DNA of 52,260 nucleotides from an uncultured Actinomycetes bacterium (GTDB lineage Bacteria; Actinomycetota; Actinomycetes; S36-B12): assembly GCA_903832025.1 (NCBI GenBank), contig CAIKZY010000076.1, positions 1 to 52,260 on the forward strand. Reading direction: 5' to 3'. The notes under the pieces were generated by a model. It had not been told where the DNA came from, made no database searches, and saw only the letters and a program-made list of their open reading frames with translations. Position 1 is the first letter of the stretch. Each line of letters begins with the position of its first letter. A program made the translations under genes and the position numbers. Below are positions 23,806 to 39,888 of this stretch, piece after piece.

Positions 23806-24197
23806 AAGCTAACGGCTGAGCCACGTCCTGGCTTGACTGACGAGTAGCACGCCGTCGCGCACAGCAAAGCGCCGCGGTGGTCCTTGGTCAGCAGGCACCG
23901 ACGATGATTCGAACACGGTCGGGCACGTAACGAACTGAAGCCGCGTTCCCACACGGGGCAGGCAACGTTCGCGCACACTGCTAATTGCCGGGCACGACCA
24001 GCAGGCATGAAGTCCACAGGCCATCGAGCCCGCTGGGCATTCAGTGAGCTGCACATGATGGGCTCTGACGCGCCATGGTGGGGAGGCCATGGATCGTGAT
24101 GTTCGTCGCGGACCAGGGCGTGACTTTCCTTGGCAATTTCCCCACACCGCAGGTGCCAGTGCCGCACAATGGAGCCTCCAGCGTGGGAGGAGCCATC

Positions 24198-25733
24198 ATG
24201 TTGTCCTTGGCAATGTTGCTCGAAGACGCCGCGCACAACTACCCCGACCGCATTGCACTGATTCAGGGTGATCGTTCCATCACCTACCGGGAAACCGACG
24301 CTGCAGCACGACGTGTGGCCGACGTGCTGGCCGAACGTGGCATCGGGATCGGAGACACCGTCGCGCTGGCCTGTCCGAACATCGCCGAGTTTCCGATCAT
24401 CTACTTCGGCATCCTCAAGGCCGGTGCGACGGTCGTGCCCTTGAACGTCTTGTTGAAAGCCGAGGAAATCGAGTACTACCTCAATGACTCCGGAGCCACG
24501 GCCTTTTTCTGCTTCGCGGGAACACCACAGTTGGATCTTGGCGCCCAGGGCCGAGGTGGCTTCGATCGGGTGGCCAGTTGCAAGCACTTCATCCTGATCG
24601 CAACCGCAGATGGGGTTGAGGGGGAGTCCTACGAGCAGTTGCTCGCAGCGGCAAATCCCACCTACGAGTCAGTGAGCACGGTGGAGACCGATACCGCCGT
24701 GATTCTGTATACCTCCGGAACGACAGGAGTGGCCAAAGGCGCCGAACTGTCGCATTCGAACCTGGTGCTCAACGCACTTGGCTGCAATCGCCTGTTCGAT
24801 ACCCACGCAGATCGCCACGACACGATGCTGGTCTGCTTGCCGCTGTTCCACACCTTTGGCGCCACGGTGCTGATGAACGGCGGATTCGCGTCGGCATCCA
24901 CGCTGGTGTTAGTGCCACGATTCACCGGTGAGGCTGCCTTGGAGCTCATGGATGCTCACGAGGTGACGATCTTTGCCGGCGTTCCGACCATGTACTGGGC
25001 CTTGCTCAATGCCCTGACCGATCAAGTGAACGTGACCAAGCTGGCCACCAATCTGCGTATCGCGATGAGCGGGGGCGCCGCGTTGCCCCTGCAGATCCTG
25101 ACCGATTTTGCCAACCGATTCGGGGTGAACATCCTGGAGGGCTATGGGTTGTCCGAAACCAGCCCGGTGGCCACGTTCAACCACCTTGGCCGCCCCACCA
25201 AGGCCGGATCCATTGGCCAAGCGCTATGGGGAGTGCAAGTGCGTTTGATCGATGAGGATTGGCACACGGTCAGCGGGGAGGACTCGATCGGGGAGATCGC
25301 GGTTCGGGGATACAACGTCATGAAGGGCTACCTCAATCGTCCCGAAGCCACCGCAGCGGTCATGCACGATGGCTGGTTTCGCACCGGCGATCTGGCTCGC
25401 CAGGATGATCAGGGGTACTTCTTCATCGTCGATCGTGCCAAGGACATGATCATTCGCGGGGGGTTCAATGTGTACCCACGCGAGATCGAGGAGGTGCTCA
25501 TGAAGCACCCGGCAGTGTCACTTGCTGCCGTCATTGGAGTCCCGGACCCAGAGCATGGCGAGGAGATCAAGGCGTGTGTGGTCAAGCAGCCCGGTGACGC
25601 AACCACCGACGCCGAACTCATCGATTACTGCAGGCAGCACATGGCGGCATACAAGTACCCGCGAACGGTGGAGTTCCTTGACGCGCTGCCGATGACCAGT
25701 ACCGGCAAGATCCTCAAGCGAGAACTGCGCTGA
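24198..25733 (+). CDS. Long-chain fatty-acid--CoA ligase
   Basis: YTSGTTG, EGYGLSETSP, WFRTGD, DRAKDMIIRGG and LPMTSTGKILKR motifs. GGAGGAG RBS. Confidence 0.93.
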   Translation: MLSLAMLLEDAAHNYPDRIALIQGDRSITYRETDAAARRVADVLAERGIGIGDTVALACPNIAEFPIIYFGILKAGATVVPLNVLLKAEEIEYYLNDSGATAFFCFAGTPQLDLGAQGRGGFDRVASCKHFILIATADGVEGESYEQLLAAANPTYESVSTVETDTAVILYTSGTTGVAKGAELSHSNLVLNALGCNRLFDTHADRHDTMLVCLPLFHTFGATVLMNGGFASASTLVLVPRFTGEAALELMDAHEVTIFAGVPTMYWALLNALTDQVNVTKLATNLRIAMSGGAALPLQILTDFANRFGVNILEGYGLSETSPVATFNHLGRPTKAGSIGQALWGVQVRLIDEDWHTVSGEDSIGEIAVRGYNVMKGYLNRPEATAAVMHDGWFRTGDLARQDDQGYFFIVDRAKDMIIRGGFNVYPREIEEVLMKHPAVSLAAVIGVPDPEHGEEIKACVVKQPGDATTDAELIDYCRQHMAAYKYPRTVEFLDALPMTSTGKILKRELR

Positions 25734-25902
25734 ACCACGGCACACGCCCATAGGCGGCAAGATCGCCGACCAAGACATGCCCGTCGCATGCCTGGCGATC
25801 GCTGGCTGGACATCTGCGTGCAGGACTCAGGGGTGGCATAACATGAGCGCGTTGAGGAGCCATTTCCTCGCGAAATCCTGATCACGAGTGTGGAGGCTGG
25901 CG

Positions 25903-26322
25903 ATGTCGACATTTCGACCGAGGCAGATGGGCATCGTTCACGACGTGATTGAGGGTCAAGTGCTGATCATTCGCAGTGACTCTGGCGCCTACTACTCGAT
26001 GGAGGGAACGGGCACTGTGGTGTGGGAAGGCATCCTGCGCGGTGAGTCAGTCGATGCGATCACAGCCAGCGCCGTGCAGCGATACCCGGATACCCCTGAA
26101 CTGGCAGCGGACATCCGGTACCTGTTCGCTGATCTGCAGCGCGAGCAGCTCATCGAAGAGACAACGAGCGCATCCAGCCCCGGCACGACAACGAGCACCC
26201 CGTGGCCGGATACCTGGACAGCTCCGGCACTGGCGATCTTCAATGACATGAAGGATCTGCTGCTGTTTGATCCGATTCACGAAGTTGGTCCCGAAGGCTG
26301 GCCATACGCATCACATGAGTGA
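25903..26322 (+). CDS. PqqD/RRE-family protein with C-terminal leader-like extension
   Basis: RRE pattern (IEGQVLII...GAYYSMEGTGTVVW...DIRYLFADLQREQLI), Ser/Thr linker, then WTAPALAIFNDMKDLLLFDPIHEVGPEGWP. Confidence 0.85.
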   Translation: MSTFRPRQMGIVHDVIEGQVLIIRSDSGAYYSMEGTGTVVWEGILRGESVDAITASAVQRYPDTPELAADIRYLFADLQREQLIEETTSASSPGTTTSTPWPDTWTAPALAIFNDMKDLLLFDPIHEVGPEGWPYASHE

Positions 26323-27316
26323 AGCCGATGCCGCGATCGCCTCGGTCTTGCAGCGCGCCCTGGCCGTCCAAGGCCTGACGCACGCCCAGGCTGCCTTCGG
26401 GCCGATGCAGCTTGAGCTCGGCTGCGATGACGATGAATTCGTGCGGTCCGTACAGCGCGCAGCGATCGCCGAGCAGTCGGCGCACGCGTGGCCGACCCTG
26501 CGGGTGCTGATGCTGACCGCTGCATCACTGCCGTTGGAGCACCTCCCGACGCCACTGCGGCCCACATTCAGGCATGCGGCGGTGCGCGTGATCACCACAC
26601 CCCGGTTTAGCTGTCTGGTCAATCAACACCTCCTCTGGGTCGCCGATCGTCAATCGGCGACGGTCCTGAGGTGGTCCCTGTCCTGCGAAGCAGTTCCGGA
26701 CTGGGAGTCGACCCGTCCATTGCGGTATGCGCTGAACTGGTGGGCCGCCGAGCATGGATCAGCCCTGCTTCATGCTGGCGTGGTCGCGTATCAGGGGAAA
26801 TCAGTCATCTTGACGGGAAAGGGAGGGACGGGGAAGTCCACAACCGTCTGCGCCTGTTTGGACTCACCGCTGTCGGTACTGGCCGATGATTACTGCCTCG
26901 TCCAACCGGCAACTGCTGATTCCGATGCCACCGCGCATGCCCTCTTCAGGGTCGGGCACGTTGATGCCCAGACAATCGCCTTACTGCCCTCACTGCGCAG
27001 CAGGGTCATCGTGGACGATCCGCAGTCAAAGTCGCTCGTGCGACTGATCGAGCAGCCACCGCGACCGGCGAGTATTGCCGCATTCGCCTCGATTACCCGT
27101 GCTCCCGGCGCGGACACGCTCATGCGTCCGACGTCCGCCAGTGCAGTGCTCCAGCAGGCAGCTCCCAGCACCATCGCACAAAGCTATGCCGGGCAGGAGC
27201 ACATCTGGCGAGTTCTGACGCAGATGGTCCAATCCAGCATCTGCGTCGATCTGCAGGTCGGCTCACTGTCGGACGTCCCGCAAGCGTTGCTGCAGACACT
27301 GCGGGACCAACCATGA
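26315..27316 (+). CDS. HPr-kinase-like P-loop kinase 1
   Basis: LLHAGVV, GKGGTGKST and LADDY motifs. Overlaps the upstream RRE gene. Confidence 0.8.
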   Translation: MSEADAAIASVLQRALAVQGLTHAQAAFGPMQLELGCDDDEFVRSVQRAAIAEQSAHAWPTLRVLMLTAASLPLEHLPTPLRPTFRHAAVRVITTPRFSCLVNQHLLWVADRQSATVLRWSLSCEAVPDWESTRPLRYALNWWAAEHGSALLHAGVVAYQGKSVILTGKGGTGKSTTVCACLDSPLSVLADDYCLVQPATADSDATAHALFRVGHVDAQTIALLPSLRSRVIVDDPQSKSLVRLIEQPPRPASIAAFASITRAPGADTLMRPTSASAVLQQAAPSTIAQSYAGQEHIWRVLTQMVQSSICVDLQVGSLSDVPQALLQTLRDQP

Positions 27317-28029
27317 TCACCCGTCCGGTGACCGTGGTCATCCCTGCGCACAATGCCGCGGGAACGATTGCCGCAACGTTGCGTTCACTGGGCAATCCCG
27401 CGCGCATCATTGTCGTCAATGATCGCTCACAGGACAGCACCGTGGAACAGATCACTGCATGCGGCATCGATGTTGACGTGCTCCACAGCACGCACCCAGG
27501 ACCTGGTGCTGCCAGGAACCACGGAGCGGTGCACGTCAGGACGCCATACATTGCGTTTTGCGATGCTGATGATCAATGGGTCCCGGGACGACTTGATGCG
27601 GACCTGGACATCCTGAGCCGCCGACCCGACATCGAGATTCTCCTGGGCAGCACCCGGTATGAAGCAACCGATGCAGCCTTGCTGGCCGGCCACGTGTTCC
27701 CCGACGACACGCAGAGCCAGGTGATCGCCCACTTCGGAGCGGCAACGATGCGCACGGCTGCCTTTCACCGGGTGGGTCCGATTCGCGAGGACAAAGCCAA
27801 CTTTGAGGATCTGGAGTGGTTCCTGCGTGCTCGCGATCTCGGTGTCGGCCTGGTAGCCCACCGCCGCATCGTTCAGCGTCGACTCATGCATCCATCAAGC
27901 ACCAGTCATGTGCATCCTGGCCGGCCCACGGACATGCTGGCGGTGCTGGCTGAATCGGTACGCCGCCGTGCAGACTCCGGTGTGGAGGTCCTGTCGTTGC
28001 AGGACAGTATTGATATGAATCTGCCATGA
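27313..28029 (+). CDS. Glycosyltransferase family 2
   Basis: VVIPAHN, VVNDRSQD, ARNHG, FCDADD and EDLEW motifs. Confidence 0.9.
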   Translation: MITRPVTVVIPAHNAAGTIAATLRSLGNPARIIVVNDRSQDSTVEQITACGIDVDVLHSTHPGPGAARNHGAVHVRTPYIAFCDADDQWVPGRLDADLDILSRRPDIEILLGSTRYEATDAALLAGHVFPDDTQSQVIAHFGAATMRTAAFHRVGPIREDKANFEDLEWFLRARDLGVGLVAHRRIVQRRLMHPSSTSHVHPGRPTDMLAVLAESVRRRADSGVEVLSLQDSIDMNLP

Positions 28030-29813
28030 AGGTGCTGTGGTGGACTGGGGAGTACCCTCCCGATGTCGGGGGCATCGCGACCGTTGCGCAACAGACCCTG
28101 GCGGCTCTGGCAGCACGTGGGATCAATGCCCATGCATTGATCGCCGCACGAGGTGACGAAGACGGCGTGGACGGCGCGATACCGCTGACGCGCCGGCCGA
28201 TTGCCGAATCGCTTATCGACAGCGACGCTGCCGCGTTCGCGCAGTGGATTGCCTTTGTTCGGAATTTCAAGGATCACCAGCGGGCCGATGTCTACCATGT
28301 GCACCCGGCTGACCCAAGCGTGCTCGCGCACCTGATGACCTTGTCGGCGCATCCTGCCCCGACCATCGTGACCTTTCACCAGCAGATGTTCTCCGTGCTT
28401 CCCTCCGCCGCACCCCAGTCGTTGATCGGACGACTGATCGCCCAGGCGCAGATTGTCACTGCGGTCTCGGCGGCCAGTGCGAACCAGGCGGTTGCGACAT
28501 TGCCGGAGATCGCCGACAAATTGATCGTGATTCCCAACGGACTGCAGGTGTCCGGACCGGTTCTTCCCCTGCCCAGTGCACCGCGGATCGTGGCCGTCGG
28601 TCGTCTTGTGCCCGTGAAGGGTTTCCATGACCTGATCCGGGCAATGGTCACCGTTGTTGAGCAGGTTCCCGACGCTCACCTGCACATCGTTGGTGATGGA
28701 CCTGAGCGTGGCGCGCTGGAGCAGATGTGCGAGCGGCTCGGCCTGACGACATCGATCACGTTCACCGGTGCGGTTGGGCAGGACCAGGTCCGCGCCCTGA
28801 TGGACGCCAGCACGATCGTGGCCATGCCGTCGACGGTTGAGGGCATGCCCATGGTGGCGCTGGAAGCATCTGAACGAGGCCGAGCCATCGTCGGTTCCAA
28901 TATCGGCGGCATTAACGAAGTCGTGCTGGATGGTGTTTCCGGTGTGCTCATTGACCGCAATGACGATTTTATTGACACCTTCGCCAGGATGCTGACCGAC
29001 CTCTTGACAGATCTGCAGCGGGCCGAGGCACTCGGTCTTGCCGCACGGGCACGCCTGGAAGACCGGCAGTCCGTGGATCGAGTGGCAGCCCTCTACGAGA
29101 TCGCGTATCGCGCGGTATGCAGCGATCGACCTGCGCCCCTGGTCAGCGTGATCATGCCCGCGCACAATGGCGAAGCCTTCATTCGACAAGCGGTTGAGTC
29201 GGTGCTCGAACAAGGTCTTGCAGATCTGGAACTCATCATCGTCGATGACGGCTCCACGGATGCAACGCTTCGGGTGCTTGCGCACGTGAGCGACCCACGC
29301 CTGATCGTCCTACCGCAGCCGAATCGGGGAAGCGGCAGTGCCCGAAATGCCGGCATCGCTATCGCCCGCGGTCAGTACATCGCCCACATTGATCACGACG
29401 ATCTGTGGCCCCATGATCGCCTGGCTTGCCTGTGGCAGGTGCTGGACGCGGACCCCGAAATGGATGCCTGCTTTGGGACGGCGATTGAATTCGCTGATCC
29501 GTCGATGCGTGGGAACTACGCGGTGCGCAGCGAGCCGAGGACCACGCGGTTCCCGACCACCGGACTGATTCGGGCTGCATTTCATCGCTCGGTCGGTCCA
29601 TTTCACAGCGAGCCCTTCGGGGACCAAGTGGATTGGTCAATACGGGCCCTGGATGCGGGTATGCGCTACGCCGAGCTCGCGAATATCGTCCTGAGACGGC
29701 GCATCCATGATTCGAACATGTCGCATCGAAATCCCCTCGACAAGGACATGAACAAGCTGCGGCTCCTCAAGCGCTCGCTGGATCAGCGCAAGGGCGACGA
29801 GGACCGGGCCTGA
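28026..29813 (+). CDS. Bifunctional glycosyltransferase (GT4 + GT2 fusion)
   Basis: N-half has YPPDVGG, VGRLVPVKG and EGMPMVALEA. C-half has VSVIMPAHN, VDDGSTD, ARNAG and IDHDDLW. Confidence 0.9.
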   Translation: MKVLWWTGEYPPDVGGIATVAQQTLAALAARGINAHALIAARGDEDGVDGAIPLTRRPIAESLIDSDAAAFAQWIAFVRNFKDHQRADVYHVHPADPSVLAHLMTLSAHPAPTIVTFHQQMFSVLPSAAPQSLIGRLIAQAQIVTAVSAASANQAVATLPEIADKLIVIPNGLQVSGPVLPLPSAPRIVAVGRLVPVKGFHDLIRAMVTVVEQVPDAHLHIVGDGPERGALEQMCERLGLTTSITFTGAVGQDQVRALMDASTIVAMPSTVEGMPMVALEASERGRAIVGSNIGGINEVVLDGVSGVLIDRNDDFIDTFARMLTDLLTDLQRAEALGLAARARLEDRQSVDRVAALYEIAYRAVCSDRPAPLVSVIMPAHNGEAFIRQAVESVLEQGLADLELIIVDDGSTDATLRVLAHVSDPRLIVLPQPNRGSGSARNAGIAIARGQYIAHIDHDDLWPHDRLACLWQVLDADPEMDACFGTAIEFADPSMRGNYAVRSEPRTTRFPTTGLIRAAFHRSVGPFHSEPFGDQVDWSIRALDAGMRYAELANIVLRRRIHDSNMSHRNPLDKDMNKLRLLKRSLDQRKGDEDRA

Positions 29814-30814
29814 AGGAATCGGATCCCGCTGCTCCACGGGGAAACTCGCGGAACAGCTGACCACGGCGGGCCTTGGCGGGCCTGCCGGATGTCATGGCGC
29901 CGCCGGGCAGCTGCCTGCATCCGCTGCCACGCCCCACCGGCAGCGATCTCGTGCAGGACGACCGCATCCATGGGCGCTGCGGACAGTTGCTCAATCACAG
30001 ACCGGGGAATATCGGCACCAACCTGACTCATGAGCCAGTTCAGTCCTTCAGCCACAAGTGGCCCGTACCCGCTGTCCACGGAATGTGCAAGGACGGACTG
30101 CCAAAATTCCGATGTGCGTGAGCCGTCCTGGAGCAACTGCATGGCATCAAGTGGCCACGTGATCGCTGCACTGGCGGGCGCCGTGATTCCCTCAACGATG
30201 GCAAGGGTCAGCAGACACCCATCCGATAGGGAATCCGCGACCGTGGATTCCATGGCTCCGCGTGCAAAGTTGGGCGGTGTTCGACGCAGCTGCGGGAACT
30301 CCCTGCCCCAGGTCAGCACCAGTGAGCGGCCATTGTCGTCAAGAAAGGCGCTGGTCATGCTGGCACGGGGACGATGGCGCATCGCCCATCCGTGAGCCGG
30401 CAGCACCTCCAAGGATCGCGTCCAGTCAGCGGCGCCAATCCACAGGTCGACCGTGGTGACCGGACGGTACGTGGACATGCTGGGGTCCAGCAGCAGGGCG
30501 CTGCCGCGGATCGGTCGGGCGGTGATGTCGTATCGCGTCAGCGCATCACGGGCCTGATGCAGGTGCAGCAGGGTCTGCTGATTGACCACCCAGGCTCGTT
30601 TCCTGAGTCCAAGGAGTAGCGGTGCGTCGGTGCCAAAGTCCAGGTACTGATCTCGGTGTGCCAGGTGATGGAGGATGGCGAATTCTCGGGATGCAGATTG
30701 CTGCAGATCATGTTCGGCGCGCCATGCGTCCCACGCCTGGACAGCGGCGTCTTCATCGGCCAAGGCTGCCCTCAGGAGCAGAGTGTCTGAGTCCGTCAGC
30801 GAGAGAATGCGCAC
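29783..30814 (-). CDS. Nucleotidyltransferase-family protein 1 (NTP_transf_5-like, degenerate motif)
   Basis: PIRGSAL...RPVTTVDLWI aligns to the LKG...R..GDxDL signature. The start (GTG 30814) is inferred. Confidence 0.65.
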   Translation of the reverse strand: MRILSLTDSDTLLLRAALADEDAAVQAWDAWRAEHDLQQSASREFAILHHLAHRDQYLDFGTDAPLLLGLRKRAWVVNQQTLLHLHQARDALTRYDITARPIRGSALLLDPSMSTYRPVTTVDLWIGAADWTRSLEVLPAHGWAMRHRPRASMTSAFLDDNGRSLVLTWGREFPQLRRTPPNFARGAMESTVADSLSDGCLLTLAIVEGITAPASAAITWPLDAMQLLQDGSRTSEFWQSVLAHSVDSGYGPLVAEGLNWLMSQVGADIPRSVIEQLSAAPMDAVVLHEIAAGGAWQRMQAAARRRHDIRQARQGPPWSAVPRVSPWSSGIRFLQARSSSPLR

Positions 30815-31037
30815 CGAGCCGCTCCTGTTCCGTGCCGTGATCGGCAGCGCGGCACCATTGCGTGTCGATGGCTCGCAGATGACCGCGTACGCGTGGAGGA
30901 ATCCTGGCACAGGTGCTCTTGGTATGGATCCACCGTGTCCTGACAGCCGCCACCGGTCGGCCGCACCGTAACGCCAAATGCTCGGCAAGCAACTGCATCA
31001 GCACACTCCGATGACACAGGTGGCACACTGGTGGATC

Positions 31038-32744
31038 ATGGTGGGCCAGACGTTGACCTTGCGGATCACTCCATCAGCGGCGGACTGCGTGGAGAATGTG
31101 TCCTCATCGAGGAACTGGACCCTTGACGATGGCCGCGTGCTGGCCGTCATCGCCGGTCCGCATGCCCTGGACCACACCGCAGTGGTGCAGTGGATGGATG
31201 CAGGCTGCCCGGATCCGGCACCGGTTCGCCAGGGATTCGCCGCGATCCTGGTCGACCCACGATCCGGTTCCACCCAGATGGCCAGCGGCGCACGCAGTGA
31301 GGTCACCCTGCATTGGGCCCTGGAGGGGCAAAGCCTGCTCGTGTCATCGCACCTGCGGGCGTTGTTGGAAGCGCAGGCCACACCGACCTTTGATGAGGAG
31401 GGGATGGCGCGCTACCTGTGGCGTGCCAGTGACCCTTCAGAGACGATGTATGCAGGGGTCACGCGGCTGCCTGCCGGCCATCACGCACGGTGGCGCCCGG
31501 GAACGCGGCCGCACCTCATGCGCTGGTTCTGGCCACAGCGCACGGACGTTTCCACTGCTGCGAACTTTCCAGGTCAGCTCGGTGACGTCATTGCCGATGC
31601 GGTGCGACAGTCACTGCCGTCAGGCGGCACGGTTGCCTCACATCTGTCCGGCGGACTGGACTCCACGACCGTGACTGCCCTGGCTGCCGCGCAGGTTCGC
31701 GGTCATGGCGGTACGATCCAGGCGCTGAGCCACCTGGTCACCCCGGAACGCTGGCCAGCGTGGCTGAGTCCTGATGCCGATGATTCCCCGTTCGTCGAGG
31801 CGTTTGTCCGAGGCACACCGGGTGTGCAACTCCATCGATTCGATACCCCGCGCCGGAGCATCCTGTCGGCAACGCGAGCGGTGTTTGAGGCAACGGCGTA
31901 CCCCATGCTCAATCCCATAAATGCCCCCTGGCTGCTGGACATCGATGATTGGGTGCGGGCCAACGACGTTGCCCTGGTCCTGACGGGCGTGCATGGCAGC
32001 TTGGGGTTCTCGATCACCCGAGGCCATCAGTACCGACGAGCGATCAGATCAGGCCAGTTTGGGCTCCTGAAACGCGACATGGTTGCCCGACACAGGCTGG
32101 GTGACCGATGGCGAAATATTGGCGCCACGACGGTGTATGAGTTCGCCCCGCGGGCCACTACGACGGTGTTGCGGGTAATCGGCCGCCATGAACCGCGTGC
32201 CAGCACAAACCCGTTGATCATTGCGCCCAAACCCACGGACATGGTCGAGCCAGGAGTCCACAAGGCGGATCGGGAATGGTGGAGCCAGTCCGTCCTTCTG
32301 GATCAACCGGCCCAGTCGCTGATGCAGTTCCCGGTGACAGGGGCGTGGGCCAGTGATCCGCTGGGTGACAGCGAGGTGATTCGCACCCTGTTCTCCGCGC
32401 CAGCATCGGCCTGGCTCGGTGACGGCATGGACCGCGCGTTAGCCCGACGAACGATGCAGGGAGTGGTCGTCGATGAGGTGCGCTTGCGTGCCGGACGAGG
32501 TCTGCAGGGCGCGGACTTCGGTGAGGCGGCGCGCAGCCAGGATCGCGAATTTCAGGAAGCGCTCGAAGAGGTCTCTGCTTCCCCGCTGGCCAACCGATTC
32601 ATCGATGTGCCCAGGCTCGCGTCCACGATGCGGCCGCATACTCCGTACGCCGGCCGATCAGCGCTGGACTGGCAACTGCTTGAAGGACGCATGCTCGGCT
32701 TTGGCCTGTATCTGGCCTGGATCGAAGGATTCCTGCGCCGATGA
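31038..32744 (+). CDS. Lasso-peptide cyclase (asparagine-synthetase-like isopeptide ligase, C protein)
   Basis: SHLSGGLDST ATP motif, YAGVTRLPAGH, LTG, DPLGD and DRALARRTMQGVVVDEVRLR. No N-terminal Cys glutaminase nucleophile. Adjacent to the RRE gene. Start uncertain. Confidence 0.85.
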   Translation: MVGQTLTLRITPSAADCVENVSSSRNWTLDDGRVLAVIAGPHALDHTAVVQWMDAGCPDPAPVRQGFAAILVDPRSGSTQMASGARSEVTLHWALEGQSLLVSSHLRALLEAQATPTFDEEGMARYLWRASDPSETMYAGVTRLPAGHHARWRPGTRPHLMRWFWPQRTDVSTAANFPGQLGDVIADAVRQSLPSGGTVASHLSGGLDSTTVTALAAAQVRGHGGTIQALSHLVTPERWPAWLSPDADDSPFVEAFVRGTPGVQLHRFDTPRRSILSATRAVFEATAYPMLNPINAPWLLDIDDWVRANDVALVLTGVHGSLGFSITRGHQYRRAIRSGQFGLLKRDMVARHRLGDRWRNIGATTVYEFAPRATTTVLRVIGRHEPRASTNPLIIAPKPTDMVEPGVHKADREWWSQSVLLDQPAQSLMQFPVTGAWASDPLGDSEVIRTLFSAPASAWLGDGMDRALARRTMQGVVVDEVRLRAGRGLQGADFGEAARSQDREFQEALEEVSASPLANRFIDVPRLASTMRPHTPYAGRSALDWQLLEGRMLGFGLYLAWIEGFLRR

Positions 32745-32813
32745 GCGGGCCCACCGACCCGTTCCGCCGCTCCTCGGCATAGGCGTCAGTACAGTGACTG
32801 CTATGGAGCAAGC

Positions 32814-33071
32814 ATGAAGGTGATTAGAAGGGTTGGCGTGGTCGATTCCCATATTGATGGGCGCCTGGTCGCGTTGAATTCCGATCTTGAGTTCGTGGAG
32901 CTCGACGTCATGGGGGAGTTCATCTGGTCGCAGACCGCTACTCCCACCGATACAGATCGCATCGTCCAGGCGGTGACCGCCCAATTTGAGGTCGATGTTG
33001 CTACCTGCCGCGAGGATGTCATCCGCTTTCTCCATGAGCTCCACAGTGCCCACTTGATTGACCTCAGCTAG
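32814..33071 (+). CDS. PqqD-family RiPP recognition element (lasso B1)
   Basis: 85 aa, IDGRLVAL...LDVMGEFIW...FEVDVATCREDVIRFLHEL. GGAG RBS. Confidence 0.9.
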   Translation: MKVIRRVGVVDSHIDGRLVALNSDLEFVELDVMGEFIWSQTATPTDTDRIVQAVTAQFEVDVATCREDVIRFLHELHSAHLIDLS

Positions 33072-33174
33072 ATCGCAGGGCCCAATGCGGCGTTCGAGCG
33101 ATCCCTGGGCGATGGTCGAGCATGTGACCTTGGCATGATGTGGACGTGCGCCGAACCCCCGATGGTCTGCAGCA

Positions 33175-34164
33175 GTGACGTCATTGGGCGAGTGTGATTC
33201 CAACCTGGCGTGCCTGCATGGTATCCACCTTCGCGCTGACTTCGCATTGCGTGGATGGCCGGCAGCAGACCTCGCGAATCCGCAGGACTGCTGGACGCTA
33301 GAAGTCCATCGCGGGCAGATCGTGAATGCCGACCCGATTCAACGCGATCTGGGTCTGGTGACCGGCAACCTGCGCCACGAGGTCATCAGCGGGCGCGAAC
33401 ACGTAGCGTTGACGATGCGCAGTTTGCAGGACTTCACGGAAACAAGTATCAACGTTGATCTCTCGCGGCGGCAGATCAGCGTGCAGTGTGATCTGTGGTT
33501 TCCCGGAAGTGAAGCCCTTCTGCTCTACCTCCTGCACACCCGCGTCATCCCCGCAATCGCCGCGCTCACCCGGAAGTCCGCGGTACTGCATGCAACAGCC
33601 ACGCACGTGCCTGAAGGCGCGATCGTGATCTGCGGTCGGTCAGGTGTGGGAAAGTCGACGCTCGCCGCCGGGCTGATCAGTTCAGGTGCGCTGCTCTTGG
33701 GCGATGAGCCGATCGTGATCGATCGGGGTGTCCACCGCAGCGTGGCCCAGCCAAGCGTGCGATCCCTTCGCCTTGAGCAGGCGACCTTCGCTGCAGAGCT
33801 TCTTGCCAATCAGGGATGGACCAGCCATGCCGGACACGACAAGTCGGTCTGGTCCCCGCCGATTGCGGCGGGCCACGCCGAAGTGAGCCCGGTTGCCGCA
33901 GTCCTGGTTCTCGGCGAACGCATTCAGTCAGGTTCGACGCCGGATTTCGTGCGCCTTTCCCCGGTTGCGGCGACGCAGGCCCTCATGGATCAATCGCACC
34001 TTTCCGTCGACCTCATTGATGCGCAGGCCCGTCGATTCACCGCGGCGGCGGCCATTGTGGAGTCCACTCCGGTGTTCGAAGTGCACATGCCCGATGACGC
34101 GGACTCGATCCACTCGGCCGTGAGGCTGCTTCGCGCGGGCATTTCCGAAGCCGGCGTGCGATGA
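33175..34164 (+). CDS. HPr-kinase-like P-loop kinase 2 (lasso-peptide kinase-like)
   Basis: VLHATA, GRSGVGKSTLA and LLGDE motifs. Confidence 0.82.
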   Translation: MTSLGECDSNLACLHGIHLRADFALRGWPAADLANPQDCWTLEVHRGQIVNADPIQRDLGLVTGNLRHEVISGREHVALTMRSLQDFTETSINVDLSRRQISVQCDLWFPGSEALLLYLLHTRVIPAIAALTRKSAVLHATATHVPEGAIVICGRSGVGKSTLAAGLISSGALLLGDEPIVIDRGVHRSVAQPSVRSLRLEQATFAAELLANQGWTSHAGHDKSVWSPPIAAGHAEVSPVAAVLVLGERIQSGSTPDFVRLSPVAATQALMDQSHLSVDLIDAQARRFTAAAAIVESTPVFEVHMPDDADSIHSAVRLLRAGISEAGVR

Positions 34165-35333
34165 CTGGGGAGCACCATCCACAACCGAAGGTCGTCGCGG
34201 ATCCGGCCACGCAGCAGCTGCTGACTGAGGCCATCCGATATGTCATGTCAATCGAGCATGGCTCCCGACCGGCAGCATCCAATCTGTCGCAGATCGATCG
34301 CGCAGCGTTCCTTGCTGCGGTTCGTCGTCAGCGCATGGAGATATTCTTGAGCCCCCATCTGGAAGATCTGAGGCTTCCTGATGAGGTCTGTGAGCAGATC
34401 AGCGCGTGGGCTGGTCAGCTCAAGATGCGCGCCATGTCCTGCGCAGTGGCAACGCGCGAGGTCTGGGCCGCGCTGACTGCATGTGGGATTGATGCGCTGA
34501 TCATCAAGGGAATTCTACTCAGCCTGCAGACGACTGGCACCGTGGCCGGCAGAGGCCCCGGTGACGTCGACCTCTGGGTTCGGGGAGCCGACGTCGGTGC
34601 TGCTGCCGAAGAACTGCACCTGCTTGGCTATCGCCGAAGTGCCTGGGCACCCACATCGGATTTCACCACCTGGCGCGGTCGCTACACGCAATGGGCTGCC
34701 TTTGAGTTGCCAATGGACCGAAACGGCCTACCCCTTGACCTCCATTGGCAACTCGCGGGGGCACGCCATGGGCTACCGACGTTTGACGAAGCCTGGAAGC
34801 AGCGTGCCGTGGTCGATATTGGCGGCACGCCGGTGAGCACGTTATCCGCAGAGCATGCGTTCGTGCACAGCTGTTCACACGCTCATCGTGATGGCTGGGG
34901 CTGGCTGCGTTCATTGATTGACATCGATCGGCTTTCGCGCCTGGTGACGTTCGACCCAGCAACTGCCCGGTCATCACGAGCCGTCCGACTGTCGACTGCG
35001 ATGGCCTATGACGTTACGGGAAGCGCCTCGCTTGGTCCGTGGATGCAGTCGGACAGCCCTGCGGTCAAGCGCGCTCGGCGAATCGCGCACACCAAGCAAT
35101 CAGATCTCGGATGGTCTGTTGCCGGTGCCTGGACCGTCCAGTCGACGTGGGACTGGCTGCACCAGTCATTGCAGCTGACCGGCAATGCGGGCGATATCTG
35201 CCGGGTACTGTCATCGTTCGCGCTGCCGCCTGAGTTTTTCGTCGAGCCGTCCTCAGACGGGCCTGTGCCCGTGCCTCGGGCGCTGTTGGCCCGCTTTCGG
35301 AAAATGGCCCGCAGAGTCAGTCACCAGGAGTGA
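34161..35333 (+). CDS. Nucleotidyltransferase-family protein 2 (NTP_transf_5-like)
   Basis: IIKGILL, GRGPGDVDLWV, LDLHWQL, H..HA..DGW and LRSLIDI motifs. ATGA-coupled to kinase 2. Confidence 0.85.
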   Translation: MTGEHHPQPKVVADPATQQLLTEAIRYVMSIEHGSRPAASNLSQIDRAAFLAAVRRQRMEIFLSPHLEDLRLPDEVCEQISAWAGQLKMRAMSCAVATREVWAALTACGIDALIIKGILLSLQTTGTVAGRGPGDVDLWVRGADVGAAAEELHLLGYRRSAWAPTSDFTTWRGRYTQWAAFELPMDRNGLPLDLHWQLAGARHGLPTFDEAWKQRAVVDIGGTPVSTLSAEHAFVHSCSHAHRDGWGWLRSLIDIDRLSRLVTFDPATARSSRAVRLSTAMAYDVTGSASLGPWMQSDSPAVKRARRIAHTKQSDLGWSVAGAWTVQSTWDWLHQSLQLTGNAGDICRVLSSFALPPEFFVEPSSDGPVPVPRALLARFRKMARRVSHQE

Positions 35334-35829
35334 CATTGATGTCGTCAGGCTCCAGACCGGATGGCACGGCAAGGACCATGGTGGGCTGAAACCCGTCAGC
35401 AGCAGGTCCGCCTACCACCGCTCCGCGACGGCCAACCAGCCATGCGTGCGCATCCCAGGTACTGTCAGGGTTTCGACGCAGACCGATGACCACGACACCG
35501 CTGGCACCTCTGCGGCGGAGCATGATCTGGGCAGCTGCTGCCTGGGCCAGGCAGCTGGGCTGGCCGGGCAGCCAGCGAACGCCGCGATGAACAGCCCAGC
35601 TCACCGACGCCTCCAACTGGTTGTCTGCTGCTGTTGGCATGGTGCGGTCTGGGTATTCAGTCCACGCCGTTGGCACCGGGCGCACCGAACCGAGCACTCC
35701 GGCCCACCAGCGCATCGGCAGCATGGCGCGCGCGAAGGTTGCCAGGGCAATCAGCGTTATCGCTTCGCCGGTGAGCGCACGTCCATGCCAGCGATCGGCG
35801 ATCGGCGTCTGAGGTCCGTCAGTCATCAT
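35317..35829 (-). CDS. Lasso-peptide leader peptidase B2 (transglutaminase-like)
   Basis: SCLAQAAAAQIMLRRRG, VVIG and DAHAWL motifs carrying the catalytic Cys and His. Confidence 0.9.
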   Translation of the reverse strand: MMTDGPQTPIADRWHGRALTGEAITLIALATFARAMLPMRWWAGVLGSVRPVPTAWTEYPDRTMPTAADNQLEASVSWAVHRGVRWLPGQPSCLAQAAAAQIMLRRRGASGVVVIGLRRNPDSTWDAHAWLVGRRGAVVGGPAADGFQPTMVLAVPSGLEPDDINVTPGD

Positions 35830-35862
35830 CTGAAGCATACGTGCAGGGCATAGCATTCCAAC

Positions 35863-37623
35863 GTGGTCGGCGAAAACGAAGCAGGGATATTCGCGTCCCT
35901 GCGATCAGATGCGCTGTCACTGCTGCGCACGGCCTTTCGGCTCTCTCCGCGAAGAAGCGTCCTGCAACTGCTGTTTTTGAGCATCAGTGGATTTACCGGG
36001 AGTGTCGGCCTGCTCCTGCTCATTCCCATCGTTGACACCATCGCGCATCCAGGTGCTCGACTCACGCTTCCGCTGGTGGGGAGTGTGAGTCTGGGAGCCT
36101 TCCCGTTGTGGAGCATGCTCCTGGCCTTCGTCTGCCTCATTGGCGTGCAGGCAGCCGTTCAACGTCTTGGCCTGATTAATGCCATGCGCATCCAGCAGGA
36201 AATTGTCGATTTCCTTCGGCAGCAGGCGTTCAATGCTGTGCTGCACGCACGCTGGGAATTCATCCTGTCCAAGCGGCGAAGCGATTTCGTCGAAGTGATC
36301 ACCGTCGGCGCGATGCGATCAGGCATTGCGTTTCAGCAGCTGACGCAAGCTGCTGTGGCACTCGTGTTCGGCTTGGCAACCGCAGCCGTGGCGATCCTGG
36401 TCTCGCCGGTGATCGCCGGACTGTCAATTCTCGGGGTGGTCCTGGCTGGCTGGATTCAGCTCAGAAGCGCTCGGCCCGCATATGCCCTCGGCCGGCAATA
36501 CGGGGAACGCTCACGTCATCTGCAAGCGGTGGTCACCGACTCGATGGACTCACTGCGACTGATTCGAGCCCACGACGCCTCGCGGCTGTGGGCCGAGCGC
36601 ATGTCCGAGGCATTTACTCTGGCCCGCGATGTTCAGGTCTCGACAGTCAAGAGGACATCGGCGACTGCCGCGTGGACCTCGGTGCTCCTGGCCGGGGCAG
36701 CCGCGCTGCTGATCCTGATTGCGGTGCAACTGTCCGTACCGCCGACACTGATTATCGTGATCGTGCTGCTCGTGGCACGCATGGCACGACAGATGCAGCT
36801 GCTGGCCACGTTGTTCGTGCAACTTGCCGGATTGCTCCCTGCGGTGGGGGACCTTGCCGATCTCACCCGACAGGCTCGGGACTGCGCGGAGGTGCCGGCT
36901 GATGGACACGGTGACTCACTGGGATCCGTGGTTTCAGCCGATCCTCTCGTGGAACTTCGTCAGGTCACGTACTGCTATCCCGGGTCCCATGCCGGGGTGC
37001 GTGAGGTCAACATGATGTTGCGCAGAGGAGCAATCACCGCGCTCAGCGGTCGCACCGGTTCAGGAAAGTCCACGACGGCCGACCTGGTTCTTGGCCTCTT
37101 GACTCCGCAATCCGGCGAGGTCCTCGTGTCCGGCGAGGTGTTGACCTCGGCTGATCTTGCAGCGTGGCGGCGCCATGTTGCGTACGTACCGCAGGAGACC
37201 GTGCTGATTCCCGGGACACTCCGCGAGAACCTGACGTGGTCGGCGCCCACTGCTGTGTCGGACGAGCAATGCTGGAAGGCCCTGGACCGCTCCGCTGCCA
37301 CATTCGCCCATCAGCTGCCCGAGGGCCTGGACACCCTGCTCGGTGATCGCGGCGTGCGTCTGTCGGGCGGGGAACGCCAACGTGTGTCCATTGCTCGAGC
37401 ACTCCTGCGCGAGCCACAGCTTCTGGTCCTAGACGAGGCGACGTCGGCATTGGATGACGACACGGAGGAGGAGATTCTCCACCTGTTGTCGCAACTCATT
37501 CCTCAGGTGACCGTCTTGGTGATTGCCCATCGACGCTCGACCCTGGAGGCGGCCGACACCGTGGTCCACCTCAGCCATGGTCGTGAAGATGGGAATTCGC
37601 GTCGGCCCATGCGTCGGCCATAG
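35863..37623 (+). CDS. ABC exporter, fused permease/ATPase (lasso D-like)
   Basis: N-terminal TM domain, then GRTGSGKST, LSGGERQR, LDEATSALD and IAHR motifs. Confidence 0.92.
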   Translation: MVGENEAGIFASLRSDALSLLRTAFRLSPRRSVLQLLFLSISGFTGSVGLLLLIPIVDTIAHPGARLTLPLVGSVSLGAFPLWSMLLAFVCLIGVQAAVQRLGLINAMRIQQEIVDFLRQQAFNAVLHARWEFILSKRRSDFVEVITVGAMRSGIAFQQLTQAAVALVFGLATAAVAILVSPVIAGLSILGVVLAGWIQLRSARPAYALGRQYGERSRHLQAVVTDSMDSLRLIRAHDASRLWAERMSEAFTLARDVQVSTVKRTSATAAWTSVLLAGAAALLILIAVQLSVPPTLIIVIVLLVARMARQMQLLATLFVQLAGLLPAVGDLADLTRQARDCAEVPADGHGDSLGSVVSADPLVELRQVTYCYPGSHAGVREVNMMLRRGAITALSGRTGSGKSTTADLVLGLLTPQSGEVLVSGEVLTSADLAAWRRHVAYVPQETVLIPGTLRENLTWSAPTAVSDEQCWKALDRSAATFAHQLPEGLDTLLGDRGVRLSGGERQRVSIARALLREPQLLVLDEATSALDDDTEEEILHLLSQLIPQVTVLVIAHRRSTLEAADTVVHLSHGREDGNSRRPMRRP

Positions 37624-37861
37624 ACTTAGGCATGGAGTCCACGACACGCCAGCCCTATCAAGCCCCCCCTACCGCCCCGAATTGTGGTCGCCCTTCAGTC
37701 GGCCCAGGGGAACACCGGTCAGCCCGGTAGCGACGGCTACCTCAATTACGGCTCCGCACCGTTCTAACGTGTCGCATCAGGCGAATGCCCCAATACACCG
37801 AAGATCGACCAGCCACCATCAAGCCAGGTATATCCTGACCACGCACGCGCGTGCGGGGTCT

Positions 37862-37891
37862 GGTGAGCATCCAAACGGTGAGCATCCAAAC
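37862..37891. repeat. 15-bp tandem direct repeat GGTGAGCATCCAAAC x2 directly before the first precursor RBS
   Basis: Two perfect copies read directly. Confidence 0.75.
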
Positions 37892-37902
37892 GAGGGAGTC
37901 AT

Positions 37903-38034
37903 ATGTCGGACAACGAGCATCGCAAGCCATACGCAGCGCCGCAAACGCCGCGCGTGGTCTCGACGCTGGCACTGTCATCCGCGACATTCACGTATGCAGG
38001 GACAGACTCGGGCTTCTACGCCTCAGTCACCTGA
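37903..38034 (+). CDS. Putative lasso precursor A1, 43 aa: MSDNEHRKPYAAPQTPRVVSTLALSSATFTYAGTDSGFYASVT
   Basis: Translated by hand. GAGGGAG RBS, YxxP leader motif, one Asp in the core region; paralogous to A2 and A3. Confidence 0.85.
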   Translation: MSDNEHRKPYAAPQTPRVVSTLALSSATFTYAGTDSGFYASVT

Positions 38035-38258
38035 GCGATCCCAGCATGCTGAAGGACCGATACGCAGATCTCCCCGGTTGGCGTGGATCGGAAACTGAGC
38101 ACTGCAGTATGGGGAGCCGTTGGCTCACAGTCCGGTGGGGCTCGCGACCGTTCCGATCGAGACCGTTCCGCCGAGACAGACATTCCTCGAAGGCTTCGGT
38201 ATAGGGTGATGACCTGAGCATCAGTCAGGTCAGCTCGGATTGGTATTAGAGGAGTGTC

Positions 38259-38396
38259 ATGTCAGAAAACGTAGATCGCAAGCCGTACGTAGCACCTGAG
38301 GCGCCGCGCGTTGTCTCGACACTCGCGATGTCAGCTTCGATGTACTTTGGCGGGTCTGGAGCTGACAACGCCTTGTACTCTTCCACACCTGTGTAA
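38259..38396 (+). CDS. Putative lasso precursor A2, 45 aa: MSENVDRKPYVAPEAPRVVSTLAMSASMYFGGSGADNALYSSTPV
   Basis: Translated by hand. AGAGGAG RBS, same leader pattern and conserved G-x-D. Confidence 0.85.
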   Translation: MSENVDRKPYVAPEAPRVVSTLAMSASMYFGGSGADNALYSSTPV

Positions 38397-38612
38397 CCAC
38401 CTCGCCGAAGTCAGCAGGATTCCGAACTTCTGGGCGGACGGGTTCGGCACGTGAAGATTGCAGCGTGGGGAATCTCGATTCCTGGTCCTGCCGATGTCGT
38501 AATCGTTCAGCGGGAGACCGGTACCGCAAGTCCGACATCCAGCTTGGGCAGCAGTCGGGGAATGAATTGGATGCCAGAATGGTGTCCAATCGCATCGGTA
38601 GGGAGGGATTTC

Positions 38613-38747
38613 ATGTCCGACATCGCAGATCGCAGGCCCTATGTAGCGCCGGCCGCTCCACAGGTTGTCGCGACGATCGTGGGAGCGGCGGTGACCTACT
38701 ACGGTGGGTCTGGAGCCGATAGTGGTTTCTACGCTTCATACAACTGA
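38613..38747 (+). CDS. Putative lasso precursor A3, 44 aa: MSDIADRRPYVAPAAPQVVATIVGAAVTYYGGSGADSGFYASYN
   Basis: C-terminal part of track ORF 38451..38747. GGGAGG RBS before ATG 38613; paralogous to A1 and A2. Confidence 0.85.
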   Translation: MSDIADRRPYVAPAAPQVVATIVGAAVTYYGGSGADSGFYASYN

Positions 38748-38879
38748 ACGATCGACGCTGCGTGATCAGGCATGACCCCTATGCACCTGCTGTCCAGGTT
38801 CTGCCGTTGAGGACTTCGTCGCCAGGAAGCCAAGATTGACCGTGTCGAAGTCTTACTGGGCTCACGGTGGAGGAGGCCT

Positions 38880-39857
38880 GTGGACGTGAAGCACTCCTTG
38901 CCCTCAACACCGTTGGTGAGCGTCATCATTCCTGTCCAGGATCGAATTGATTTCCTGGGTGCTGCACTGGCAAGTGTCCGAAATCAAACCGTCCATGACC
39001 TAGAAGTGATCATCGTCGATGCCGGGTCGACCCAGGATGTCGGCGGGTTCGTCAGGCATATTCAACGGACCGACTCCCGGTTTCGCTTCGTGCGAAGCGA
39101 TGCCAGGCTGAGCGCGGCAGAGGCCAGAAACCTGGGTTTGCAGCAAGTGCGGGCGCCGTACGTCGCTCATCACGACTCAGACGACATCATGCAGCCGATG
39201 CGGTTGCACCAGCAATTGTCTGCTTTCGACGCACCAGATCTTGAGTGTGTGGCTGGATGCATGCTGGGGATGAGTGCAGCAGGACTGCGTCTTTCGACCA
39301 TGGCCTCGCAAGGGACGACGGATGCTGCAACGGCGATGACTGATCTAGAAGTCAGATGGCGCTTTCCAATTTTGATGCCTTCGATGACCTCAACGCTCAT
39401 GATGCGGACGCAAACCCTGCGGGATATGGGCGGATTTTCTACGAACTACACCACCTGCGATGACTATGTCACCATGGCTACTCTGCTTGACCGGGGAAGA
39501 GTCGTGCGCATTGGCGAATATGTCACAAAGTACCGACAGCACGACCGTCAAATTTCCACGTCGAGGAATATCGAGCAACAAGTGCAGCTGTCGCTGCTGC
39601 GACAGCGCATCATCGCCTCGCGAGTCAGCGCCAAGGTCGCACTCGGTCCGGTCATGACCCTCACCCTGCCCAACCTGCCCGAATCAACGACGCACCGATA
39701 TCACCGTGAGGCGCTGTCCCTGCTCGACGCGCTGTTAGAGAGCTTTCTGGACGAGCATCAGCCACGTGAACAGGATCAAAAGTGGATCCTGCACGACTAT
39801 CGACAGCGAAGGCACGCCTTGATGCAGCAAGCCGGCCTTCGTGATGACACCGCATGA
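38880..39857 (+). CDS. Glycosyltransferase family 2
   Basis: VSVIIPV, IIVDAGS, ARNLG, HDSDDI, CDDY and YRQH motifs. Confidence 0.9.
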   Translation: MDVKHSLPSTPLVSVIIPVQDRIDFLGAALASVRNQTVHDLEVIIVDAGSTQDVGGFVRHIQRTDSRFRFVRSDARLSAAEARNLGLQQVRAPYVAHHDSDDIMQPMRLHQQLSAFDAPDLECVAGCMLGMSAAGLRLSTMASQGTTDAATAMTDLEVRWRFPILMPSMTSTLMMRTQTLRDMGGFSTNYTTCDDYVTMATLLDRGRVVRIGEYVTKYRQHDRQISTSRNIEQQVQLSLLRQRIIASRVSAKVALGPVMTLTLPNLPESTTHRYHREALSLLDALLESFLDEHQPREQDQKWILHDYRQRRHALMQQAGLRDDTA

Positions 39858-39888
39858 CGCGGCAGCCCCGCCCACGGCTCATGAACTG

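Follow-up and report, generated by a model that had tools for sequence, protein, structure and literature searches.

A lasso-B1-like RRE protein with an invariant C-terminal peptide in cis, encoded beside an HprK-like kinase and glycosyltransferases in several bacterial phyla

We describe a gene at 25903–26322 (plus strand) of a 52,260-nucleotide stretch of DNA from an uncultured Actinomycetes bacterium (contig CAIKZY010000076.1 of assembly GCA_903832025.1); this whole stretch is called the window below. The gene encodes a RiPP recognition element (RRE; RiPPs are peptides made by ribosomes and modified after translation) which carries, behind a variable linker, a leader-like motif and an invariant peptide at its own C-terminus. 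This RRE-tail protein is conserved across phyla. Its gene is part of an autonomous, cross-phylum gene set that further comprises an HprK-like kinase, a GT2 glycosyltransferase (GT), a GT4-GT2 fusion glycosyltransferase and usually an NTP_transf_5 protein and an ABC exporter. The explanation we favor, and hold tentatively, is that the RRE-tail protein is a self-presenting peptide, i.e. a covalently modified substrate or primer that would be handed to the kinase.

The open reading frame (ORF) starts with ATG at 25903, ends with TGA at 26320–26322 and is a real gene of 139 amino acids (aa). A sequence-only reading of the window, made by a model without database searches, had described it as an RRE followed by a Ser/Thr/Pro linker and a leader-like C-terminal peptide, and this layout was confirmed in the sequence and by Pfam. 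The overall order is a lasso-B1-like RRE, a variable linker, and WTAPAL...DLLLFDPIHEVGPEGWP. The Ser/Thr/Pro-rich linker TTSASSPGTTTSTPWPDT (residues 87–104) lies between the RRE and the leader-like tail. Residues 105–134 read WTAPALAIFNDMKDLLLFDPIHEVGPEGWP, exactly as quoted in the sequence-only reading, and are followed by YASHE. One homologue (94% identical) contains a 9-residue duplication, TTSASSPGT, within the linker and nowhere else, indicating that the length of the linker is free to vary. Scanning 25600–31100 for promoters and terminators gave nothing above chance.

Conservation is strongest in the tail. A search with the whole protein returned 20 proteins, and in the resulting 19-sequence alignment (18 relatives, 37–100% identical) W105, P108, D115-M116, D118–V128 and G132–P134 are invariant and form the best conserved part of the protein. 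With the tail alone as a 42-residue HMMER query against 1.84 billion representatives, 345 cluster representatives were found at E ≤ 1e-3. Among the best 150 of these matches all proteins are at most 205 aa long, nearly all measure 125–175 aa, and the tail is located near the C-terminus. In the aligned full-length members D123, P124, H126, W133 and P134 are present in 119/119 sequences, P108 in 118/119 and G132 in 117/119; the best RRE columns, G28 (117/118) and Y30 (113/119), lie below the tail invariants. Because the tail served as query in collecting these 119 members, the set is biased towards tails. Position 105 is W in 55, F in 30 and Y in 28 members, and position 110 is L in 87, I in 10 and F in 9. 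The residues after GWP number 3–11 in 110/117 members. The resulting motif (W/F/Y)xxPx(L/I/F) is not a chance match. The earlier proposal that WTAPAL fits the (Y/W)xxPxL motif bound by lasso RREs is thus supported by the family, and so is its expectation of a conserved tail, the tail being more conserved than the RRE.

For an independent sample, a kinase profile was run against 401 genomes from the same phylum, which gave 30 kinase loci. Where the kinase matched over its full length, a tailed PqqD gene adjoined it (4/4 loci), so that the tail goes with this type of kinase. At 13 of the 30 loci only the kinase domain matched and the PqqD gene was tail-less (one of these, L041, belongs to a genome marked as unpublished), and 13 loci had no PqqD gene within 1.5 kb. 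Among relatives the RRE-tail gene is patchily distributed: a match was found in 5/41 genomes searched and in 0/8 other genomes of the same genus (completeness 76–98%). Database names of family members do not go beyond “PqqD family protein” and “hypothetical protein”, and a PDB sequence search with the tail gave no match.

A free tail peptide was not found. Of 27 short matches among those listed, 10 were examined: they are singletons or pairs on contigs of 560–3652 bp, except for one whose contig measures 37.8 kb. The short matches carry the end of RRE helix 3, and two of the clusters also contain a full-length sibling. Taken together with the short contigs and the occurrence as singletons or pairs, this argues for truncated gene fragments and against free peptides. 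Fused forms of at least 245 aa did not turn up either, which is weak evidence. In a tree of RRE domains, 110/122 tailed sequences fall into one pure clade (support 0.34) and 13/16 tail-less sequences group together (support 0.86); these supports are too weak for us to claim a single origin of tailed RREs.

Two deviating sequences were noticed. Locus L021 (genome G014) encodes a shorter RRE, apparently without helix 2 and without WxxPxL, yet its end reads YTDMEELLLADPIHEVDAEGWP, and an HprK-like gene follows it; the invariant end thus occurs even where the leader-like motif is missing. The metagenomic PqqD protein at L069 (9809–10429) has the tail YEAPVLNAYHDMSALLALDP followed by unrelated residues, pointing to a frameshift or a decayed tail. 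Downstream of it lie GT2, GT2, GT4 and HprK-like genes, and upstream an AMP-binding enzyme.

The trivial explanation would be that the tail has no special role and is a neutral appendage, a mis-called ORF end or a by-product of overlapping with the kinase gene. In its favor one could cite an ORF that starts with TTG at 26267 and overlaps the last 56 nt of the RRE-tail gene in another frame. Kinase homologues align from the ATG at 26315, however, and not from 26267. Moreover, synonymous codons are freely exchanged among 22 distinct DNA versions of the tail (D123: GAT 11, GAC 11; P124: CCG 13, CCC 7, CCA 2), which shows that selection acts on the protein rather than on a DNA or RNA signal overlapping it. 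As the protein is conserved across phyla while its codons vary, we rejected the artefact explanation as practically untenable.

We examined the predicted structure of the protein with AlphaFold2 (AF2). The mean predicted local distance difference test (pLDDT) was 82.7 with 19 and 85.2 with 118 aligned sequences. The model places strands at residues 3–6, 11–16, 19–24, 30–34 and 84–87 and helices at 36–45, 50–60 and 67–80, and has the B1/RRE fold of a three-stranded sheet and three helices. The best Foldseek matches are lasso B1 proteins (TbiB1, 5v1v and 5v1u; TfuB1, 6jx3; E 1.6e-4 to 4.8e-2, template modelling (TM) score 0.82–0.85), led by TbiB1 chain 5v1v_A with E 1.6e-4 and a target TM of 0.84 and including TfuB1 chain 6jx3_B with TM 0.82; the PqqD structure 5sxy is a weaker match. 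In NCBIfam, lasso_PqqD_Bac is matched by 101/118 and lasso_PqqD_Strm by 89/118 members, all below threshold. The RRE-tail protein reaches neither lasso B1 cut-off (NF033530, 28.6 vs 70 bits; NF033536, 22.9 vs 80 bits), nor that of TIGR03859 for PqqD of PQQ biosynthesis (17.2 vs 46 bits). TIGR04353 gives no match for it at E ≤ 0.01 and matches 11/118 family members weakly. No NCBIfam model names the tailed family. The lasso-B1-like character of the RRE is thus supported by structure and profiles alike.

The WxxPxL stretch is predicted to dock in cis on the RRE. Despite a linker at pLDDT 69–73, residues 101–110 reach 95 and 97 in the two AF2 runs, values that are possible only if the segment packs on the domain. 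Both runs place a strand at 111–113 and a helical turn at 116–119. Residues 121–139, among which are the most strictly conserved positions, stay at a pLDDT of about 50 in both. The fold-back into its own RRE that had been envisaged for the tail is thus supported by the models for WxxPxL, which is placed as docked together with strand 111–113, and not for DPIHEV..GWP, which is not docked on the RRE in these models. Covariation between tail and RRE (I112-A29, I112-E81, W105-D70) points to strand 3 and helix 3, the signal being weak and confounded by phylogeny. The top-scoring pairs, F122 with R24, L21 and S25, were rejected as contacts and represent clade signals. Lasso B1 proteins bind YxxPxL leaders (PDB titles; PMC10368454), and together with the covariation pairs I112-A29, I112-E81 and W105-D70 this suggests the groove between strand 3 and helix 3 as the putative docking site. 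The spacing agrees as well: in lasso leaders YxxPxL spans −17 to −12 (PMC10368454), and in this register W105 is −17 and L121 is −1, with [FL]DP[IV]H[ED]V..GWP beginning at the core start. The arrangement of a leader followed by a C-terminal core, typical of RiPP precursors, therefore fits, but the peptide is fused to the RRE and its recognition is modelled.

The kinase gene begins at ATG 26315 inside the end of the RRE-tail gene, with an 8-nt overlap up to the stop, and the GT2 (27313) and GT4-GT2 (28026) genes each overlap the preceding stop by 4 nt. These overlaps make the translational coupling previously proposed for kinase, GT2 and GT4-GT2 plausible. In the kinase, the Walker A motif (G168-KGGTGKST-176) and D191-D192 are invariant in 14/14 homologues, placing the protein in the HPr kinase/phosphorylase superfamily. 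Its match to NCBIfam HprK_rel_A (TIGR04352) scores 41 bits against a cut-off of 200, and it is not an HprK/P orthologue (TIGR00679, 18.2 bits, cut-off 240). Only the kinase half of the tailed-module kinase matches other HprK-like genes of the phylum; the N-terminal domain is distinct. An Atlas search with this domain returned only unnamed clusters and a PDB sequence search with the kinase returned nothing useful.

A complex model of the kinase with the RRE-tail protein obtained a score of 0.75, and the best of 3 controls 0.02. A score of 0.75 is reached by 116/157 solved complexes and 2/215 mismatched pairs, counts that are approximate as our own alignments were used. The runs agree in at least 87% of the contacts, with a partner pLDDT of at least 79. 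The confident interface is formed by kinase residues 274–306 and the face of the RRE sheet (residues 10–32), and it also holds kinase residues 169–170 of the Walker A loop together with tail residues 113, 115 and 116. The kinase N-domain is not part of it. To our knowledge no complex of this RRE-kinase kind has been solved, so that a score derived from model memory seems unlikely. The RRE-tail protein is thus predicted to bind the HprK-like kinase whose gene overlaps its own, in agreement with the partner proposed in the sequence-only reading, and the start of the tail helix may sit at the kinase P-loop.

According to the explanation that we favor, a lasso-B1-type RRE would be permanently loaded with its own peptide. 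As the models suggest, the leader-like W105–F113 would fold back on the RRE as an added strand, and the helix D115–L121 and [FL]DP[IV]H[ED]V..GWP would stay free to be presented to the enzymes encoded in the operon, beginning with the HprK-like kinase. The C-terminal helices of this kinase would seat the exposed face of the RRE sheet, and the interface would include both its P-loop and the beginning of the tail helix. The RRE-tail protein would play the part that HPr has for HPr kinase, or the B1-bound precursor for lasso kinases, and would be the peptide-bearing substrate or primer of the kinase, NTP_transf_5 and glycosyltransferase set. The simplest account would be that the RRE treats its own tail as RREs usually treat a precursor, holding the front and presenting the rest, because the groove is modelled as self-filled and no free peptide is conserved nearby.

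To assess the gene context we surveyed 31 tail-bearing loci outside the window species (3.7–20 kb each) by tblastn. Genes were located by tblastn and a GC3-based caller; longest-ORF calls are unreliable here, antisense ORFs being found in GC-rich DNA. The kinase is present at 26/31 loci and a GT2- or GT4-GT2-type gene (either query) at 28/31, the other three being contig ends. NTP_transf_5 was detected by tblastn at 13/31 loci, and Pfam finds more; homologues of the NTP_transf_5-like protein of the window itself occur at 7/31 (tblastn). This window protein matches Pfam only weakly, its homologues at L007 and L011 strongly, and strong matches were also obtained at L014, L027 and L031. An ABC exporter is located at 12/31 loci. 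The gene set was found in 16 species genomes belonging to Actinomycetes, Acidimicrobiia, Gemmatimonadaceae, Cyanobacteriota, Flavobacteriia and a gammaproteobacterium, and in addition on seven metagenome contigs (L062–L068); on an eighth (L069) the tail stops after LLALDP. One carrier is in culture: Crinalium epipsammum PCC 9333 bears the genes on plasmid pCRI9333.04 (L070, NC_019735.1 5896–9298) in the order tailed PqqD family protein (WP_232229449, with Thr at 114), nucleotidyltransferase, HPr kinase, FkbM methyltransferase and GT-A genes.

In the window the module is followed by lasso peptide genes, and the sequence-only reading had offered an auto-inhibited RRE as an alternative. In the form that we considered, the tail of this second RRE of the lasso pathway would compete with the three free precursors (37903–38747) for the groove and so regulate their delivery to the module kinase and the GTs. 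The free precursors indeed carry PY[AV]AP, resembling WTAP, a lasso cyclase gene adjoins the module, and three RRE genes are located within 16 kb. One of these is the canonical 85-aa B1 of the lasso set, however, which makes the tailed RRE an extra one. At the other tail-bearing loci the cyclase was found in 1/31 cases and B1, B2 and free precursors in 0/31 each, the B2 count being made with the real B2 (35317–35856) as query. The sole other cyclase locus is L064, a 68%-identical relative with the gene order of the window, so the adjacency to lasso genes is a trait of the window lineage. Auto-inhibition needs the free precursors, which exist only in the window, and we consider it quite improbable. 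As a rule, then, the module does not belong to lasso pathways as an accessory. A second, diverged module is located on contig C162 of the same 2.2 Mb genome (L023 1456–1890; L027 9800–12744). It encodes a GT4, a 144-aa RRE-tail protein (EWTAPSVFANDDLADLLVIDPIHDASEDGWPQS), an HprK-like kinase and an NTP_transf_5 protein among GT and ABC genes, and in the 19.9 kb around it no cyclase, B1, B2, precursors or lasso kinase were found. The assignment of 25903–30814 to a second sub-system stood in so far as the module is separate; it is not co-directional, its last gene being on the minus strand (29783–30988).

We further searched 103 neighbor proteins from 10 loci with Pfam. Many GT2 and GT4 genes were found, together with Wzy_C, Bac_transf, WecG, Polysacc_synt_2, LytR_cpsA_psr, sulfotransferases and Acyl_transf_3, which is the content of glycan loci. 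PADLOC gave no defense-system match for the five module proteins. Literature searches, with subscription papers and bioRxiv supplements outside reach, found nothing on the tail or the gene set. Directly upstream of the RRE-tail gene lies an AMP-binding gene of the acyl/aryl-CoA ligase type (24075–25733), which may or may not belong to the module; similar genes are located near the module at L067 and L069.

Several observations weigh against a covalently modified tail. Across the 119 members the tail lacks any conserved Ser, Thr, Tyr, Cys or Lys, and Ser or Thr follows GWP in only 72/117. Position 114, flanked by the residues that contact the kinase in the model, is T in 57, S in 12, N in 17, D in 17 and E in 9 of 119. 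In the window protein it is Asn, and a mixture of S, T, D and N at this position also fits a plain helix N-cap. The kinases of Asn114 and Asp114 lineages retain their catalytic residues. Since Thr or Ser is present in just 69/119 members and those kinases are intact, we rejected residue 114 as a universal phospho-acceptor. The invariant Asp123 and His126 would be the other acceptor candidates, without precedent for such kinases. DPxH and GWP, the most invariant residues, lie outside the confident kinase interface, and the docking geometry derives from pLDDT and covariation, not from coordinates. The GTs of the module resemble builders of lipid-linked or polymer glycans (PglI, chondroitin synthase, BshA, PimA/B); given this likeness and the glycan-type loci, the sugars may go onto a glycan instead of the peptide. 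Finally, no peptidase recurs among the 103 neighbor proteins, nor is one encoded in the window module, and RiPP cores are usually variable, an invariant core being typical only of cofactor precursors.

These points lend weight to a non-covalent role as adaptor, activator or pseudosubstrate, which we regard as a real possibility without thinking it probable. The RRE with its cis strand would be a scaffold, and the invariant, acidic-hydrophobic tail would fold on the kinase (N-domain or active site) and/or on NTP_transf_5 and the GTs, assembling or gating a glycan-building complex while itself staying unmodified. The lack of a conserved acceptor, with Asn114 in the window protein, agrees with this, as do the polysaccharide-like GTs in glycan-type loci. 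The tail is disordered alone and yet invariant, and it occurs only with kinases having the special N-domain (4/4 loci, against 0/13 among the tail-less ones). Kinase binding is predicted by the model, and protein contacts between B1 and kinase have been raised as a possibility (PMC10368454). An adaptor role, however, does not explain why a leader-like motif with lasso spacing is retained before the tail. That Asp, His and Trp are totally invariant, and not hydrophobic residues only, points to chemistry more than to docking, and the kinase N-domain lies outside the confident interface.

The self-presenting peptide can be formulated more specifically as a natural fusion of RRE, leader and core that acts as carrier or primer. 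The tail would be phosphorylated (at Asp123 or His126, or at Thr/Ser114 where present) and then extended via NTP_transf_5 and three GT domains into a peptide-anchored glycan, with the ABC exporter handling it. In this full form we consider the proposal rather unlikely. A further alternative is a cofactor- or signal-like RiPP precursor, in which the RRE would be an outsized leader and the invariant peptide would be modified and cut off, as with PqqA or MftA, yielding one conserved small product; a protease encoded elsewhere could possibly release it. Precursors of conserved cofactors likewise have an invariant core at the extreme C-terminus, an RRE is combined with a GT2 that is weakly similar to MftF (TIGR03965, E 1.5e-14, far under the cut-off), and an ABC exporter is often adjacent. 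However, radical-SAM enzymes, oxidases and peptidases are absent from the gene set, it would be costly to spend 139 residues on each product molecule, and the loci look glycan-type. We therefore judge such a precursor improbable.

Comparison with known systems shows both likeness and differences. Lasso B1 proteins share the motif spacing, with YxxPxL in lasso leaders and [WFY]xxPx[LIF] in the RRE-tail family. Their partner peptide is separate and has a variable lasso core after the motif, whereas the RRE-tail protein carries an invariant peptide in the same chain, and neither a B2 peptidase nor a cyclase belongs to its gene set. The same three families, RRE, HprK-like kinase and nucleotidyltransferase, are combined in lasso tailoring (PadeK/ThcoK, BsfK and PsmK/PsmN). 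BsfK was assayed with BsfB1 and phosphorylates Ser3 of BsfA (PMC10368454), and according to PMC7533575 kinases and the nucleotidyltransferase PsmN act on the C-terminal Ser of paeninodin-type precursors. These cases are a precedent for HprK-like kinases acting on RRE-associated precursors. These lasso kinases phosphorylate a Ser of a free precursor; the RRE-tail module has neither a free precursor nor a conserved Ser, and its kinase differs by the distinct N-domain.

In HPr kinase, the C-terminal helix and the P-loop receive HPr, whose Ser46 begins a helix. What is predicted for the RRE-tail protein is similar (kinase 274–306 and 169–170, helix start at 113–116), although the folds of RRE and HPr are unrelated and the residue equivalent to the acceptor is Asn in the window protein. 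The HPr-rel-A system (TIGR04352 kinase, TIGR04353 PqqD chaperone) is a likewise uncharacterized pairing of PqqD and HprK-related kinase; the module matches well under the cut-offs, and the window protein lacks a TIGR04353 match. LctM and LynD fusions with the leader in cis are laboratory constructs. NHLP and Nif11 precursors place a domain-sized leader before a short C-terminal core, but their leaders are not RRE domains. We are not aware of a naturally occurring fusion between an RRE and its leader, and literature searches for one found none.

The coordinates of the features discussed here are given in Table 1. Homologues of the NTP_transf_5-like protein at the end of the module align from about residue 83, so its true start is probably at 30740–30800.

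Table 1. Coordinates of the RRE-tail gene, its module and the adjoining lasso-type genes in the window.
Feature	Position	Strand	Description or basis
Shine-Dalgarno-like GGAGG	25892–25896	+	6 nt upstream of ATG; read from sequence
RRE/PqqD-like domain, residues 1–90	25903–26172	+	Pfam PqqD E 9.9e-10; AF2 pLDDT 88–98
Variable Ser/Thr/Pro-rich linker, residues 91–104	26173–26214	+	least conserved columns; pLDDT 69–73
Leader-like segment W105–L121 (WxxPxL, strand 111–113, N-cap 114, helix DMxDLLL)	26215–26265	+	conservation, AF2
Invariant core-like peptide F122–P134, [FL]DP[IV]H[ED]V-x3-GWP	26266–26304	+	conservation; pLDDT ~50 in the two AF2 runs
Short variable C-terminal end YASHE and stop	26305–26322	+	family ends vary
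HprK-like P-loop kinase with family-specific N-terminal domain	26315–27316	+	Walker A and DD; HprK_rel_A E 1.1e-10
GT2 glycosyltransferase	27313–28029	+	Pfam Glycos_transf_2 E 1.9e-21; nearest solved relative PglI
GT4-GT2 fusion glycosyltransferase	28026–29813	+	Glycos_transf_1 E 3e-35, Glycos_transf_2 E 9e-31
NTP_transf_5-like protein, convergent	29783–30988 (ORF limits)	-	weak Pfam NTP_transf_5 E 0.0016
Lasso cyclase	30978–32744		
Canonical 85-aa B1	32814–33071		
Second HprK-like kinase	33175–34164		
NTP_transf_5	34161–35333		
B2 peptidase	35317–35856	-	Transglut_core3 E 7e-17
ABC exporter	35863–37623		
Three tandem precursors, 43–45 aa	37903–38034, 38259–38396, ~38616–38747		MS[DE]..[DR][RK]PY.AP..P.VV[SA]T...
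GT2	38880–39857		
PqqD-TylF O-methyltransferase fusion	39889–41157	-	

The adjoining lasso-type cluster (30978–41157) is heavily equipped for tailoring. Its free precursors contain Y-x-A-P and lack the Leu of YxxPxL, so that, as had been noted from the letters, WTAPAL fits the lasso motif better than they do. Counting from the Thr at −2, their first Asp is located at core position 13–14 and not at 7–9, so that a cleavage site and ring are not evident. A plus-strand ORF at 35185–35853 (222 aa, rich in Arg, Cys and His) was rejected as a gene, being antisense to the real B2.

RREs are the common handle of RiPP biosynthesis, and in all those described the precursor that is bound is a separate molecule. 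If a natural RRE indeed holds a leader-like motif and an invariant peptide in cis, enzymes would be offered a peptide in a new way, and it is this RRE system with its peptide in cis that appears, from the sequences, to be new. The tailed family comprises 345 or more sequence clusters and has members in Actinomycetota, Cyanobacteriota, Gemmatimonadota, Bacteroidota and Pseudomonadota, and genome mining aimed at free precursors would miss it. If our explanation is true, it would provide a first functional lead for the widespread triad of PqqD, HprK-like kinase and NTP_transf_5 in glycan loci and would also hint at what such kinases act on. With Crinalium epipsammum PCC 9333 as a cultured carrier, the question is accessible at the bench. 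Should the tail turn out to be a glycan primer borne on a protein, the system would be of a new kind; a class of ribosomal-peptide-primed glycoconjugates would then be hidden in ordinary-looking polysaccharide loci of many phyla.

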